64,000 nt of DNA from IMG/VR virus record IMGVR_UViG_3300045957_000047, positions 1 through 64,000 of that record; one strand, 5' to 3'. This DNA is from a virus. The translations under genes and the position numbers were made by a program. The notes under the pieces are model-generated. The model saw nothing but the letters and a program-made list of their open reading frames with translations, made no database searches and had not been told where the DNA came from. Within the stretch, counting starts at the first letter, position 1. Each line of letters opens with the position of its first letter. Of this stretch, positions 46,973 to 57,485 are shown one piece after another.

Positions 46973-47722
46973 TCAGAATATTCTTCCGACTTTAAATCCC
47001 AACACATTATCTTCATGAAAATGTACCCCCAAAAAGGTACGGCCTTGTGCAAAACACCAGCATGCATGTAGCACTTCCTGGTACAAATCAGGACTCAGGT
47101 CGAAGTGATCTTTGACAACATTGGCAGTCACTCCAGATACTGCTCCATGGCCAGCACCATAAGACCAGTGCCCCGGTGCCGGGTACCCATTCACGGTAAA
47201 GATAGTGCCGTGAACTTGGAAGAAATCTTCAGGCCTGGGCTGTTTCCAATAATACTTGATATCAAACATCCGATCCAAAGCTTCAGGCCATCGTCTATTC
47301 AGGTCTCCCATAAAGGCAGCCATCGAGCCATCTTTATCGCAAAACTGAATCGTTCCCGGTTTGTCTACCTTGTAAGGGACATTCAAGCGGCGCAGCTCAT
47401 CGTGTAAGAACTCCCCTAGATGCCAGGGTTTGTCCATGCTTACAGCCTGAGCCAAGGCAACAGGTCTTGGGTTTTTATTGGTACCCAACCGAAGCTTCTG
47501 GGCCAACAGTCGAGGTACTTGACCTTCAAGCTCAGACGGGTTTTGTTTGCTCAGAAAATCACCCGACCACTCACCTGCCTGAGTACGGGCAACAGTCTGC
47601 TCTACTTCTCGCAACGAATCTGCGAACTCAGGAGTCCCCGGAATTAGAGGTGCTGGCGTATTCCAACGCTTGCCTTCCCTTGGAGAGACAACATCACGAG
47701 GTGTTTGAATAAAAGCTTCCAT
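46973..47722 (-). CDS. Vanadium-dependent haloperoxidase-like / PAP2 superfamily enzyme
   Basis: All three motifs present: KYYWKQPRP (KX6RP), HWSYGAGH, GRTFLGVHFHED. Confidence 0.8.
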   Translation of the reverse strand: MEAFIQTPRDVVSPREGKRWNTPAPLIPGTPEFADSLREVEQTVARTQAGEWSGDFLSKQNPSELEGQVPRLLAQKLRLGTNKNPRPVALAQAVSMDKPWHLGEFLHDELRRLNVPYKVDKPGTIQFCDKDGSMAAFMGDLNRRWPEALDRMFDIKYYWKQPRPEDFFQVHGTIFTVNGYPAPGHWSYGAGHGAVSGVTANVVKDHFDLSPDLYQEVLHACWCFAQGRTFLGVHFHEDNVLGFKVGRIF

Positions 47723-47723
47723 A

Positions 47724-48422
47724 TCAAGCAGGTCTGTTTTTAGGGTAACGAATCAGAAGTTGTTCAATATCTTCAGGCTGCCAAGATCTTAAGGCAATAA
47801 GCTCAGGATAGAGTAAAGAGTCCCGGTTTCGAGAGTGCGACAACCCTAAAGCATGTCCGATCTCGTGATCCGTTACCGTCTCGAAGAATTGATCGTTGGT
47901 CCAAGTCTCTGAGGTATCGAAGATCATATCTCCGCACAAGGGTCCACAGGCTGACATACGATCCCCGGTACCTGGCACATACGTCACTCCCAGAGTACCT
48001 CCCGCACCATCCAATTCAGCCCACTTAATATGGATGTCCGCATTTCGAAAACCCGTTTGTCGAAACTCAATACCACAAAGGTTCTGAACAATGGCAAACC
48101 GTTCTTGTAAAATTATACCCGCTCTGGAAGTACCTTGATTGATAGGATTATGAGACCAGGTTACCGGCTGTCCTTGGTCTACCTTGTGCCATCGACGCTC
48201 TCGGGGCTCCGGGCAATTACAGACTGGACTCTTTGGCTCTTCATTGTTTTTGAAAAACGTAATCAGCTCATCAATCGCTTCTCGTTCTGTCTTAAAAGAA
48301 ACTCCCAAAAGCATGCGGGCAATGTCGATGCTTTCAGACCACAGAAACATACGCCGAAGACGCAAAGGCGACAAGTTTTTGAAGAGAGAACGAAGATCAT
48401 CAATGTCTTTGTAGCTGTTCAT
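47724..48422 (-). CDS. Matrixin (M10) zinc metallopeptidase
   Basis: ADIHI, DGAGGTLG, GDMIFD..ETW, HEIGHALGLSHS, SLLYP turn. Confidence 0.9.
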   Translation of the reverse strand: MNSYKDIDDLRSLFKNLSPLRLRRMFLWSESIDIARMLLGVSFKTEREAIDELITFFKNNEEPKSPVCNCPEPRERRWHKVDQGQPVTWSHNPINQGTSRAGIILQERFAIVQNLCGIEFRQTGFRNADIHIKWAELDGAGGTLGVTYVPGTGDRMSACGPLCGDMIFDTSETWTNDQFFETVTDHEIGHALGLSHSRNRDSLLYPELIALRSWQPEDIEQLLIRYPKNRPA

Positions 48423-55298: not shown

Positions 55299-55299
55299 T

Positions 55300-55473
55300 T
55301 CAATTTAACCAGTAATAGCAGAGTGCAAAACCAAGCCCAAACCCCAGTAGCCCATGACACATGCAACCAAACAAAAACCAACAAATATCACAAAAACGAT
55401 TCCAACGATTGCTGAAAAGATTGACGTACCATTCCAACGCTTTTCCAAAAGGTTTTTCTGTATCAATAGACAT
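55300..55473 (-). CDS. Small membrane protein (57 aa)
   Basis: TAATG-coupled; MSIDTEKPFG...FCDICWFLFGCMCHGLLGFGLGFALCYYWLN. Confidence 0.55.
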   Translation of the reverse strand: MSIDTEKPFGKALEWYVNLFSNRWNRFCDICWFLFGCMCHGLLGFGLGFALCYYWLN

Positions 55474-57485
55474 TATATGTAGATTCCAGCAAAATCCTCG
55501 ATATCTTCAACAACTTGGCCTTGTCCTTGTGAGATATTCAAGATGTAAAGCAGTTCAACAGTGTCTGAAAAATCTACCAACGCAGGATCACTGAACGCAT
55601 TCCGAGCCTGTTGCCATAATGCACCACACTGCCCAGATACTGCTTGACCCCAAAAATTGCTGTTAGCCCAAGGTTGTATATCTCCGGTGGCGGCATTAGA
55701 ACGGAAATCAGCAGTGCCTCCCTGTCCCTGAGCTGCGTTGAGATTACCATTATCGATTCTGACATAACTGAGGTTGGCCTTGACCCAGGCAAGATTGGAA
55801 GGGTCTGTGTTCTGATCGTTCCATTCTGAATGCTGAACAACGTGTACTCTTCCCAACTGCTCAGCTGTGGCTCCCAGATTATTTTCAAGGTACCGAGCGA
55901 CCAAGTAAGTAAAGTCAGAAGGCCCACCTTCTGCCACCCACACGTCTGCCCCGGTATCCAAAGTCTGTTTCCATCGAGTAGCAAACTCCACAATGTGGTT
56001 GAACGACCCGTCTGTATTGCCTCTGACCTTGAACCAACTACTGCCGTAAGCCTGGTTCAGAACATTTTCGACACCTGGATTGTAGTTACTCCAACGAGTA
56101 CCTCCTGGTGTACTCCCGTTACTCCAGACTCTGAGACCGTAAGCTCCTCCCGCGACCATAATGCGAGAACCTAACGAGTACGTTTGTACGACGCATGCCC
56201 CTGCTGCTGACGCATGAATGTCGTCTGGATCTGGAGCTGAATCATAATGAATAGACAACAGATCATCTGGCGTAAATCTACCAGTAGCCGCAGGCTTTCC
56301 CAAAGGTGTCAGGTTGACAGACGATCCTACGCAACTGAGTTTCGGTACTGCATTGGGGTCTCCAGTTCCATCTTTGAGTAGCGCGACTGCATCTACATAG
56401 AACTGACCTGAACGACCGGCGAACTCTAACGTATGCACACCTGCGGACAAAGCCATCCAGTAGTTACCCCCACCCTCATTGGGATCAATACTGATCTGCC
56501 AATCAAACGGCGTGTTAGGGCCTGGTATGGATCGATATAATTTATGCCAAGATCCGGCTGTTGCTGTCTGTCCGGGTACCGAGCCACCTGAGTGTCTCAC
56601 CCATAAATCGTTATTTTTGTCTGGGGCTTCATCGTATAAAGCACTGTTTCGAATATACAGACGGTAGTTTCCAGCCTCGGACACATTGATTGTGTAACTG
56701 ATTACATCGTTCTGATTAACGTTAATACTGAGCGTCGGTTGTTGGTACACCAAGTGTCCTGAACCGGTAAAACCCGATCGAGCTGTACTGAGCTGCCAGT
56801 TGTTTTTTAACTCTGTATCTTCGGCCTCAAAAGCGATCTGGCCAGAAGTTGCTTCGAAAACACATCCGGTAGCTACTGATCCGCCACCGCCTCCGCCTCC
56901 TGCTGACTGCCCGGTACCTTGATAGGTATGGTTATCGTTATCCACACACGTACCGTTACTGGCAGAAACAGTGATTCCTAATGTCGCAAACGTGCTATAT
57001 ACAGACTCCGGAATGTTGGTAAAAGTGAAAGCATTTTCAATCACTACCGTGCTATAGACGCGACCTTGGATAGTCGTCCACACGGCATTGCCGTTACCCA
57101 GACCTGAAGTCGTCCCTGTCAACTGACCAGCACTGGAAGTGATTGAATCGATTCCTACTCCGGTACCACTACATGAACTGTAATCAGAAGTGCGTACTGA
57201 GAAGGCAACTGTCGACTGTTTCTCACAGCCTGTTGTTGGGTCAAACAAGGTAACGGTTAGAGACTGTCCTTCTAACTGCTGCTGTACGTCAAACGGGATA
57301 CCTGATATCTGAAAAAAATCTCCAACGTATCTACCCACATAAACAACATTGTTAATAGTTACAGTAACCCGTGCGTCATCTCCAAACCCCTCGGAATGTC
57401 CTACGATAATCCCGGCAAAAGAAGTCGTATCCGTAACTGAGAACGCACTACAAGGGTCGATAGGTGGAGAAGGGCAAGTGAACAT
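55473..57485 (-). CDS. Modular protein: two Ig-like repeats, CBM-like domain, enzyme-like DxDPDD domain
   Basis: Duplicated beta-rich N-terminal units, poly-Gly linker, FEAED..GFTGSG, HYDSAPDPDD...AEGGPSDFT...VQHS. Confidence 0.65.
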   Translation of the reverse strand: MFTCPSPPIDPCSAFSVTDTTSFAGIIVGHSEGFGDDARVTVTINNVVYVGRYVGDFFQISGIPFDVQQQLEGQSLTVTLFDPTTGCEKQSTVAFSVRTSDYSSCSGTGVGIDSITSSAGQLTGTTSGLGNGNAVWTTIQGRVYSTVVIENAFTFTNIPESVYSTFATLGITVSASNGTCVDNDNHTYQGTGQSAGGGGGGGSVATGCVFEATSGQIAFEAEDTELKNNWQLSTARSGFTGSGHLVYQQPTLSINVNQNDVISYTINVSEAGNYRLYIRNSALYDEAPDKNNDLWVRHSGGSVPGQTATAGSWHKLYRSIPGPNTPFDWQISIDPNEGGGNYWMALSAGVHTLEFAGRSGQFYVDAVALLKDGTGDPNAVPKLSCVGSSVNLTPLGKPAATGRFTPDDLLSIHYDSAPDPDDIHASAAGACVVQTYSLGSRIMVAGGAYGLRVWSNGSTPGGTRWSNYNPGVENVLNQAYGSSWFKVRGNTDGSFNHIVEFATRWKQTLDTGADVWVAEGGPSDFTYLVARYLENNLGATAEQLGRVHVVQHSEWNDQNTDPSNLAWVKANLSYVRIDNGNLNAAQGQGGTADFRSNAATGDIQPWANSNFWGQAVSGQCGALWQQARNAFSDPALVDFSDTVELLYILNISQGQGQVVEDIEDFAGIYI

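Follow-up and report, generated by a model that had tools for sequence, protein, structure and literature searches.

The window analysed here, positions 1-64000 (64,000 nucleotides) of the 74,198-bp IMG/VR virus record IMGVR_UViG_3300045957_000047, carries between the portal gene and the scaffold-like and capsid genes of a phage a block of 12 co-oriented genes (46973-57485, minus strand, about 10.5 kb), which encode three collagen-like proteins, several small Cys-rich and adhesin-like proteins and, in a row, a GH16 enzyme, a matrixin and a PAP2-type protein. The record is rated complete, with direct terminal repeats, measured here as an exact repeat of 106 bp, and the single public run that contains the stretch is a sediment metagenome, no RNA run being listed for it; its owner is a complete 74-kb podovirus-like phage of sediment. 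The genes of the block and of its flanks, read in the direction away from the portal gene, are the following (lengths in amino acids, aa).

58294-60429, minus strand: portal protein (phrog_332, 8.8e-27; phrog_1216, 8.7e-7), the upstream flank of the block
55473-57485 (57548), minus strand: modular protein of 670 aa (691 aa from an upstream TTG), described from its open reading frame (ORF) and structure leads
55300-55473, minus strand: Cys-rich protein of 57 aa (8.8 % Cys) with a hydrophobic C-terminus
54876-55298, minus strand: Cys-rich protein of 140 aa with a CCC end and no Pfam or PHROG match
53394-54866, minus strand: collagen-like protein of 490 aa (Pfam Collagen, 92.3 bits)
54705-54769, minus strand: (His-Gly)n coding tract inside the preceding gene, 10.8 copies of a unit of 6 nucleotides (nt)
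52770-53273, minus strand: collagen-like protein of 167 aa (Pfam Collagen, 61.5 bits)
52392-52754, minus strand: protein of 120 aa (4.2 % Cys)
51700-52359, minus strand: protein of 219 aa, with C-terminal leads to phage tail-fibre tip domains
51101-51700, minus strand: protein of 199 aa with a coiled-coil-like C-terminus; its stop overlaps the start of the next gene
49551-51101, minus strand: collagen-like protein of 516 aa (Pfam Collagen, 119.7 bits)
48422-49564 (/49591), minus strand: GH16 beta-glucanase-type enzyme, 380 aa from ATG (PF00722, 28.9 bits, cut-off 22)
47724-48422, minus strand: matrixin (M10A-type) of 232 aa (PF00413, 60.7 bits, cut-off 24)
46973-47722, minus strand: soluble enzyme of the PAP2 superfamily, bromoperoxidase-like, 249 aa (motifs, predicted model, structure matches)
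45708-46745, minus strand: scaffold-like protein, Gln-rich and with zero Cys, assigned by position and composition only
44670-45686, minus strand: major capsid protein (tblastn to annotated Rhizobium phage capsids), the downstream flank of the block

Two small genes stand between the portal gene and the block, and a 53-aa ORF between the PAP2-type gene and the scaffold-like gene. Junctions within the block range from -14 to +32 nt, with one exception of 120 nt, and six of them are overlaps of 1-14 nt. The count of sigma-70-type promoters in the region is not above that in shuffled sequences, that of terminator-like sites is modestly above it (21 vs 13.7, standard deviation 3.3), and no promoter- or terminator-like site marks a clear operon boundary. 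In Logan, a second assembly of the run that holds the stretch (possibly the window's own source and thus not an independent sample), one contig of 21,307 nt runs from before 43500 to 54703 and another from 54774 past 61500; they match 43500-54703 and 54774-61500 without differences at depths of 16.4 and 16.9, and the sole break between them is the His-Gly repeat. GC content is even throughout the region, and a search for direct repeats flanking the block, as a sign of a mobile insert, found none. The block is contiguous and a genuine part of the late structural operon; because the second assembly spans it and both its flanks at even depth, a chimera is very unlikely, which speaks against the artefact that the preliminary description of the sequence had named as a danger. 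That description, of a co-oriented and largely translationally coupled stretch of about 11 kb between portal and scaffold/capsid, with three collagen-like proteins with CC/CCC ends (one of them with a His-Gly tract), small Cys-rich proteins (measured at 8.8, 5.7, 4.2 and 4.0 % Cys) and consecutive GH16, matrixin and vanadium-haloperoxidase-like proteins, is otherwise confirmed by the Pfam, repeat and motif analyses, which also show the catalytic motifs of the three enzymes to be intact; of its carbohydrate-binding module (CBM)-bearing modular protein, the gene stands, and the CBM rests on a sub-threshold Golvesin_C match and low-scoring structure leads.

The 249-aa protein was recovered by the Pfam PAP2 profile with 26.2 bits, slightly below the cut-off of 27.2, and the PAP2 fold was confirmed by its predicted model (mean predicted local distance difference test score, pLDDT, of 91). 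Its 21 metagenome homologues (244-265 aa, 38-62 % identity) retain the vanadate/phosphate-site motifs Kx6RP, (S)GH and Rx5Hx3D: K156-x6-R163-P, H185-x-x-x-x-A-G-H192 (H185-WSYGAG-H192 here) and R228-x5-H234-x3-D238 are invariant in 22/22 sequences, so that K156, R163, G191, H192, R228, H234 and D238 are all conserved. An extra His seven residues before the motif-2 His is a hallmark of bromoperoxidases, its place being taken by Phe in fungal chloroperoxidase. H185, which is invariant, occupies this position and corresponds to the extra His of the Corallina sequence HPSYGSGH, where PhoN has Asp; more broadly, the Corallina counterparts of APGHWSYGAGH and GRTFLGVHF are SPFHPSYGSGH and GRNMAGVHY. 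The structural comparison with VIA-align placed vanadium bromoperoxidases of red and brown algae and Acaryochloris in all of its ten best rows (Z 18.4-19.7, root mean square deviation (rmsd) 3.4-3.8 A, 232-241 of 249 residues, 17-20 % identity), followed by acid phosphatases (Z about 15, range 14-15, with about 175 residues aligned) and by fungal and bacterial chloro- and iodoperoxidases (Z about 14). Foldseek ranked bromoperoxidases and class A acid phosphatases level, with no separation. Judged by its model and its motifs, the PAP2-type protein stands nearer to vanadium bromoperoxidases than to acid phosphatases, and "vanadium-haloperoxidase-like" is a fair label for its nearest relatives. 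The chain falls short of a full-size haloperoxidase, which has about 400-670 aa and either two helical bundles in each active unit or a dimer partner that supplies the second bundle, and vanadate-dependent halide oxidation by it is a reasonable possibility that we would place somewhat short of even chances. The N-terminus is not hydrophobic (maximum 19-residue hydropathy 0.85). Among 185,579 species genomes in GTDB, a pattern scan revealed no cellular relative.

The protein could instead be a phosphatase or a phosphate binder acting on phosphates of the host surface (lipopolysaccharide, teichoic-acid-like polymers or capsule) rather than a haloperoxidase, a reading to be taken seriously even if we rather doubt it. 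Every PAP2 phosphatase motif is present, including the Asp of HxxxD, 249 aa is the size of a class A acid phosphatase, with matches at Z about 15 and template modelling (TM) scores of 0.5-0.6, and PhoN is the top PDB match by sequence. On the other hand, the bromoperoxidases score 4-5 Z units higher with about 60 more residues aligned, motifs 2 and 3 are Corallina-like (H-x-SYG-x-GH and GRxxxGVH[FY]) with the extra His invariant in the family, and the signal peptide typical of class A phosphatases is lacking.

The matrixin gene lies immediately upstream of that for the PAP2-like protein. Its zinc site reads HEIGHALGLSH, with H186, E187, H190, G193 and H196 invariant, and HExxHAxGxxH is kept throughout the family (eight homologues, giving a 9-sequence alignment). 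The column of the Met-turn contains Met in seven of the nine sequences and Leu here (SLLYP). Cys70, within a PxCxCP motif (PVCNCP...RRW), R77-W78 and Cys116 are likewise invariant, and two further Cys residues in a "CG..CG" segment are kept in 8/9 sequences. The predicted model (pLDDT 75.6) matched karilysin with Z 18.2 and rmsd 2.1 A over 144 residues, and human MMP-9, MMP-1 and MMP-12 (matrix metalloproteinases, MMPs) with Z about 17. The N-terminal ~60-65 residues are helical and lie upstream of Cys70 and R77-W78, an arrangement with which a cysteine-switch zymogen is plausible; modelling is poor near Cys70 (pLDDT below 50 for residues 63-75), and an alignment starting at residue 28 or 34 was obtained with only part of the proMMP-9 rows.

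The GH16 protein has 726 homologues (E up to 0.001) and matches GH16/laminarinase-type enzymes in the PDB (best 1.4e-9). E218-x-D220-x-x-E223 is invariant in 12 aligned homologues, and the laminarinase matches suggest that the enzyme is a beta-glucanase. About 50 N-terminal residues are helical and end in a Cys, with no signal peptide; several homologues have the same helix and Cys and also lack a signal peptide, and others have lipoprotein signals. None of the three enzymes has a protein match in 50,697 GenBank phage records or in PHROGs. The hydropathy scan found no signal-peptide-like hydrophobic N-terminus among the block proteins, which would therefore stay with the assembling particles until lysis.

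Uninterrupted Gly-X-Y runs of 60, 26 and 52 triplets characterize the three collagen-like proteins. The 516-aa protein has a 60-triplet run that includes G-C-C, followed by 140 aa of non-collagen insert, another collagen run and, at the C-terminus, a Cys-rich domain; the 167-aa protein has 26 triplets, including G-C-P, and a CC in its C-terminal tail; the 490-aa protein begins with a CC-containing N-terminus, continues with (His-Gly)11, a Pro/Ala linker and 52 triplets, and ends with a 245-aa C-terminal domain. The repeats and the in-register Cys triplets (G-C-C, G-C-P and G-C-E) suggest that these proteins form collagen trimers. Many PHROG "tail fiber" families match them, strongly and through the repeat only, and phage collagen-repeat families in PHROG are overwhelmingly annotated as tail fibres; collagen-like proteins are also known in E. 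coli O157 prophages (PMC3368898). The non-collagen domains show no resemblance to other proteins of this genome, and Pfam detected no family other than Collagen in any fibre or small Cys-rich protein and no exosporium-type, collagen-IV NC1 or haem-peroxidase family in the block. At 49968-50720, two low-depth contigs of 82 and 267 nt (depth 2.2-2.5 vs 16.4) bridge collagen runs that lie far apart in the 516-aa gene, leaving out 630 and 711 nt; they may stem from a minority of the population with a repeat of another length, or from repeats of other organisms.

The 199-aa protein connects the block with another part of the genome: over its first 152 residues it shows homology (BLASTP E 1.5e-26, 37 % identity in 171 columns) to the N-terminal part of a 423-aa protein encoded in a plus-strand cluster of fibre-type genes described below. 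For the C-terminal domain of the 219-aa protein the Atlas search gave leads only, to gp53-like_C and H-type lectin domains (TM by row 0.67, features 0.89), and the first 30 residues of the 120-aa protein weakly resemble those of the 219-aa protein (KF[IL]DPxTG; BLASTP E of only 0.27). The leads for the modular protein are immunoglobulin (Ig)-like repeats in the N-terminal part, a CBM-like middle and a C-terminal nucleoside-hydrolase-like fold (Sde182_NH-like). Golvesin_C scored 20.3 bits against a threshold of 31.6; residues 226-410 gave CBM and type IX secretion system (T9SS) rows in Atlas as low-TM leads, and residues 420-691 gave unnamed bacterial clusters (TM by row 0.76) and an Sde182_NH-like cluster (TM by row 0.74). 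The modular protein has no PDB match by sequence, neither it nor the 199- and 219-aa proteins match GenBank phage records, and the small block proteins have no PHROG match.

No close relative of the phage was found in IMG/VR (scans with the portal and with the capsid and PAP2 alignments), among GenBank phages or in GTDB genomes: the IMG/VR capsid scan gave one match at 24 % identity, on a contig without upstream DNA, the GTDB scans with the PAP2 and capsid alignments gave none, and the DNA of the block has no GenBank phage match. Metagenomic homologues of the capsid, PAP2-like, GH16 and matrixin proteins were therefore compared for co-occurrence, homologues being assigned to one contig by equal reported size and source and not by name. 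Five contigs were obtained in this way.

Contig of 9,099 nt: capsid (P0003), PAP2-like (P0017), GH16 (P0091)
Contig of 11,767 nt: capsid (P0002), PAP2-like (P0019), matrixin (P0044)
Contig of 25,998 nt: capsid (P0005), PAP2-like (P0021)
Contig of 4,513 nt: PAP2-like (P0025), matrixin (P0040)
Contig of 64,976 nt: PAP2-like (P0030), GH16 (P0051)

By this pairing, the PAP2-like gene accompanies a capsid gene on three contigs and a GH16 or matrixin gene on four; identity to the proteins of the phage is 43-76 % for the capsid and 38-62 % for the PAP2-like protein. The PAP2-like and capsid genes thus seem to be regular neighbours in the clade, which supports the view that the enzymes are unlikely to be one-off morons. 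The preliminary description had allowed that they might be independent morons; against this they recur with each other or with the capsid on the size-paired contigs, although not everywhere.

A scan of JGI metagenomes with the PAP2 alignment added three AT-rich distant loci (L003, L004 and L005; 26-28 % identity). In L003 only 4 nt separate the end of a matrixin gene (Pfam 32.5 bits; 92.9 % by hhalign against the phage matrixin family) from the PAP2-like gene that follows it. The crAss-like fragment L004 also codes for a tail ring protein of crAss type; downstream of its PAP2-like gene (all motifs retained; hhalign 98.5 %, E 3.8e-15, 218 columns) come a metzincin that has a lipoprotein-type signal, then a CHAP lysin, small membrane proteins and a 1699-aa Cys-rich protein. 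The last of these (4175-9274 of L004) is extremely Cys-rich, contains a SprB-type repeat, stands directly before the tail ring protein gene and looks like a giant external fibre. In L005 no protease adjoins the PAP2-like gene, and a 5' fragment considered as ConA/GH16-like was dropped (hhalign only 22.9 %). A functional link between the protease and the PAP2-like protein is suggested because their neighbourhood survives wide divergence, once with reversed order and a different metzincin.

Beyond the block, the replication genes (family A DNA polymerase, helicase and primase-helicase, by PHROG matches) occupy the left half of the window, and the virion genes occupy the right half on the minus strand; no tRNA genes were found within the window. 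The capsid, which has 14 metagenomic homologues, shows 24 % identity over 95 % of the query (tblastn, E 1e-7) to the capsids of Rhizobium phage RHph_TM3_14A and its kin, and Rhizobium phages have a gene of the same size at the position equivalent to the scaffold-like gene. Very large proteins of 1326 and 2374 aa are also found among the minus-strand virion genes. Further features that bear on the role of the block are listed here in record coordinates.

39406-41043, among the minus-strand virion genes of the right half: internal-virion-protein homologue (phrog_511)
66626-67897, plus strand: fibre-cluster protein of 423 aa, its N-terminus paralogous to that of the 199-aa block protein
Within 69445-70639, minus strand: Peptidase_M15_3 endolysin of 156 aa (61.6 bits), adjoining the terminase

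The 423-aa protein belongs to a divergently transcribed plus-strand cluster (60824-69275) of six large proteins, among them a beta-helix/pectate-lyase-like protein (392 aa), a LamG-like protein (464 aa) and an 814-aa protein with tandem repeats of ~30 aa; this is probably the main fibre/depolymerase set. N-terminal domains in common are the usual sign of appendages that dock on one site. A putative membrane protein of 88 aa and a protein of 144 aa are encoded on either side of the endolysin, and 69445-70639 is likely the lysis cassette. Since a peptidoglycan endolysin is encoded there, the block is not a lysis cassette, and GH16 plus matrixin as a substitute for an endolysin was rejected for the same reason; the M15 enzyme also implies that the host has ordinary peptidoglycan. 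Three early-region ORFs at 14297-15928 (plus strand) start with lipoprotein-type signals (lipobox L-[LT]-A-C), which, at the level of sequence, suggests a Gram-negative host. Two small neighbours of the block were also noted. The 151-aa protein between portal and block (57490-57945, minus strand) starts with a segment of moderate hydrophobicity, continues as a long region of coiled-coil character and gives only a weak phrog_1863 match; the 53-aa ORF (46771-46932, minus strand), very basic and with two Cys, takes up the greater part of the 227 nt that separate the PAP2-like and scaffold-like genes and belongs to no known family. As to cysteine, the three large presumed internal or ejected proteins encoded at 25444-34411 on the minus strand (2374, 378 and 235 aa; 2,987 residues) contain none, like the scaffold-like protein; the capsid-to-tail proteins average 2.5 % Cys, and the seven Cys of the capsid are invariant across its 14 homologues. 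The block has 2.7 % Cys vs 1.9 % in the early proteins, and, this excess being modest, Cys content was given little weight as a marker of external location.

We propose, with about as much belief as doubt, that the block encodes late-expressed and probably virion-borne fibres and matrix-degrading enzymes directed against the envelope or biofilm of a bacterial host. This reading draws on the location in the structural operon, the absence of export signals, the anchor-like domain shared with the fibre cluster, the fibre-, lectin-, Ig- and CBM-type parts, the two hydrolases with intact sites and the separate endolysin. The block would be an accessory adhesion-and-penetration module, inserted between portal and scaffold and transcribed with the late head genes. 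Its collagen-like proteins would form trimeric fibres stapled by in-register Cys triplets, with the 199-aa protein as a possible anchor; the lectin-like 219-aa protein and the Ig/CBM-like 670-aa protein could give the particle extra grip on surface glycans; and GH16 and matrixin, either mounted on the virion or released at lysis, might cut polysaccharide and protein layers of the bacterial envelope, sheath or biofilm. The bromoperoxidase-like enzyme may act together with the protease, and halide oxidation could oxidise the switch cysteine or cross-link the fibres. For an animal or algal matrix as the target, as entertained in the preliminary description, no support was found, given the sediment source, the phage's own tail-fibre/depolymerase cluster and its M15 peptidoglycan endolysin.

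Several observations weigh against the adhesion-and-penetration module. Location in the virion, substrates and any halogenation are inferred only, for an uncultured phage, and no recognisable virion-anchor domain was detected in the three enzymes. The Ser that precedes Gly-His in motif 2 of both phosphatases and haloperoxidases is Ala in all 22 sequences of the PAP2-like family. The contigs that make this gene a neighbour of the capsid were paired by equal size rather than by name. PAP2-like genes occur without a detected matrixin on contigs of 25998, 45663, 24256, 64976 and 15330 nt, and matrixins without a detected PAP2-like gene on contigs of 24063, 34409 and 45759 nt; this split on long contigs means that the pairing is not obligatory, or that the word-based search missed diverged copies. 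Finally, the L004 metzincin, with its lipoprotein-type signal and its position beside a CHAP lysin and membrane proteins, fits a role on the lysis side in that phage.

The last point leads to a different view of the enzymes, namely that GH16, matrixin and the PAP2-like protein are soluble late non-structural proteins released at lysis, for the dispersal of biofilm and cell remains or for envelope breakdown, with only the collagen- and lectin-like proteins in the virion. We consider this rather unlikely overall, yet, given L004 especially, it is a serious rival. The enzymes have neither anchor domains nor signal peptides, the PAP2-like/metzincin pair of L004 stands directly before the CHAP lysin and small membrane proteins, and matrixin is variably present in relatives; but the phage has its own endolysin and small putative membrane protein ~22 kb away near the terminase, the enzyme genes are translationally coupled to the fibre genes, and the N-terminal helix and Cys shared by signal-less GH16 homologues may be an attachment segment.

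Unlikely too, in our judgement, is a cross-linked fibrous coat, an option of the preliminary description, with the collagen-like and Cys-rich proteins as a hair-like or lattice layer on the capsid; hypobromous acid (HOBr) from the bromoperoxidase-like enzyme would form the cross-links and the matrixin would trim fibre precursors in the manner of procollagen proteinases. The block does adjoin the capsid and scaffold genes and not the tail genes; there are Cys triplets within Gly-X-Y runs and CC/CCC ends on the fibre proteins; the capsid has its seven invariant Cys, against none in the scaffold-like protein and the three large proteins presumed to be internal; (His-Gly)11 could form metal bridges; and the PAP2-like fold is closest to bromoperoxidases. 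Nevertheless, disulfides alone could explain the Cys pattern, the Cys content of the block is only modestly over that of the early proteins, the 199-aa protein ties the block to the fibre/depolymerase cluster and not to the capsid, and no exosporium-type or collagen-IV NC1 family was detected by Pfam.

A further, more far-reaching proposal is that the phage carries a working mini vanadium bromoperoxidase, of ~40 % of the size of the solved enzymes, which acts with the neighbouring pro-matrixin; its HOBr, formed at the particle or at lysis, would arm the protease by oxidising the switch cysteine and could also cross-link the collagen-like, Cys/His-rich fibres. Hypochlorous acid activates animal pro-MMPs by oxidising the switch cysteine; even so, we regard the proposal as quite unlikely. 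That the block is an assembly chimera or a foreign insert and not of this phage can safely be discarded: in its favour, GenBank phages with the nearest capsids have only ~0.7 kb with three small genes from portal to scaffold, from which we take the block to be an expansion at this junction, but the difference-free Logan contigs of equal depth, the even GC, the absence of flanking direct repeats and the size-paired contigs on which PAP2-like and GH16 or matrixin homologues accompany capsid homologues all speak against it.

To our knowledge, phages gain access to the cell with enzymes that are nearly always glycanases, lyases, esterases or peptidoglycan hydrolases. Our literature search turned up no paper on a haloperoxidase-like enzyme in a phage, nor one on this combination of genes. 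What is new here is the combination of parts and the matrixin/PAP2-like pairing, fibre/depolymerase modules and the PAP2/haloperoxidase and matrixin families being already known. If the proposed role is correct, an MMP-type protease and a bromoperoxidase-like enzyme with collagen-like fibres would widen the known chemistry of phage entry and release, and such a conserved set would suggest hosts whose outer layers are rich in protein and glucan. Among bromoperoxidase-like scaffolds the 249-aa enzyme would be the smallest, in a family easy to test in vitro, and the matrixin/PAP2-like pairing offers a concrete two-gene hypothesis. Should the mini-bromoperoxidase proposal hold, a virus would have a halogen-based activation or curing step, and the metzincin beside a PAP2-like gene in two very distant loci would mark a conserved two-enzyme system.

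Compared with known systems, the phage matrixin shares PF00413, HExxHxxGxxH and the catalytic-domain fold with karilysin of Tannerella forsythia (2XS3/4R3V) and with MMP-1, -9 and -12 (Z 17-18, rmsd about 2 A, 137-148 residues aligned, 25-28 % identity), as well as an N-terminal helical segment followed by a Cys directly before the catalytic domain. It differs from them in the Leu that replaces the Met of the Met-turn, in PxCxCP vs PRCGxPD, in a poorly modelled S-loop region with two conserved Cys, and in having neither a signal peptide nor a hemopexin domain. The best structure matches of the PAP2-like protein are the vanadium bromoperoxidases of Corallina pilulifera/officinalis (7QWI, 1QHB, 1UP8), Ascophyllum nodosum (1QI9) and Acaryochloris marina (5LPC/8Q21), with which it shares Kx6RP, H-x-SYG-x-GH with the extra His, and GRxxxGVH[FY]xxD; unlike these proteins of 555-666 aa, it has 249 aa (<=40 % of the length of the best matches) and Ala for the motif-2 Ser. 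With class A acid phosphatases (PhoN 2A96/2AKC, E. blattae 1D2T, PhoC 9QCJ) it has the superfamily, the catalytic motifs and the size in common, but those enzymes are periplasmic, with signal peptides that the phage protein lacks, and have no His at the position of H185, seven residues before the motif-2 His (Asp in PhoN). The GH16 enzyme shares PF00722 (above cut-off) and ExDxxE with laminarinase-type beta-glucanases (6XOF/6XQF, 3ATG), from which it differs by the helical N-terminus ending in Cys in place of a signal peptide and by the location of its gene in the head region.

The collagen-like proteins resemble collagen-like phage tail fibres (PHROG 5073, 6320, 366 and 1806, "collagen like minor tail", and those of the E. 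coli O157 prophage) in their long Gly-X-Y runs and non-collagen flanks. Unlike them, they are encoded by three paralogous genes between portal and scaffold and not in the tail module, have Cys triplets, CC ends and (His-Gly)11, and are coupled to three enzymes. With the Bacillus exosporium (BclA plus a Cys-rich lattice) and with the collagen IV/peroxidasin/MMP system of animals the block shares the general parts list alone, and this likeness is best seen as analogy, not membership. Branched tailspike sets with common N-terminal adaptors are found in phages such as G7C, CBA120 and K1-5. Like the multi-depolymerase receptor-binding systems of podoviruses, the phage described here has several appendage proteins, one pair of which shares its N-terminus, and glycan-cutting enzymes; those systems are without a protease or a PAP2-type enzyme, and here the extra set lies in the head-gene region.

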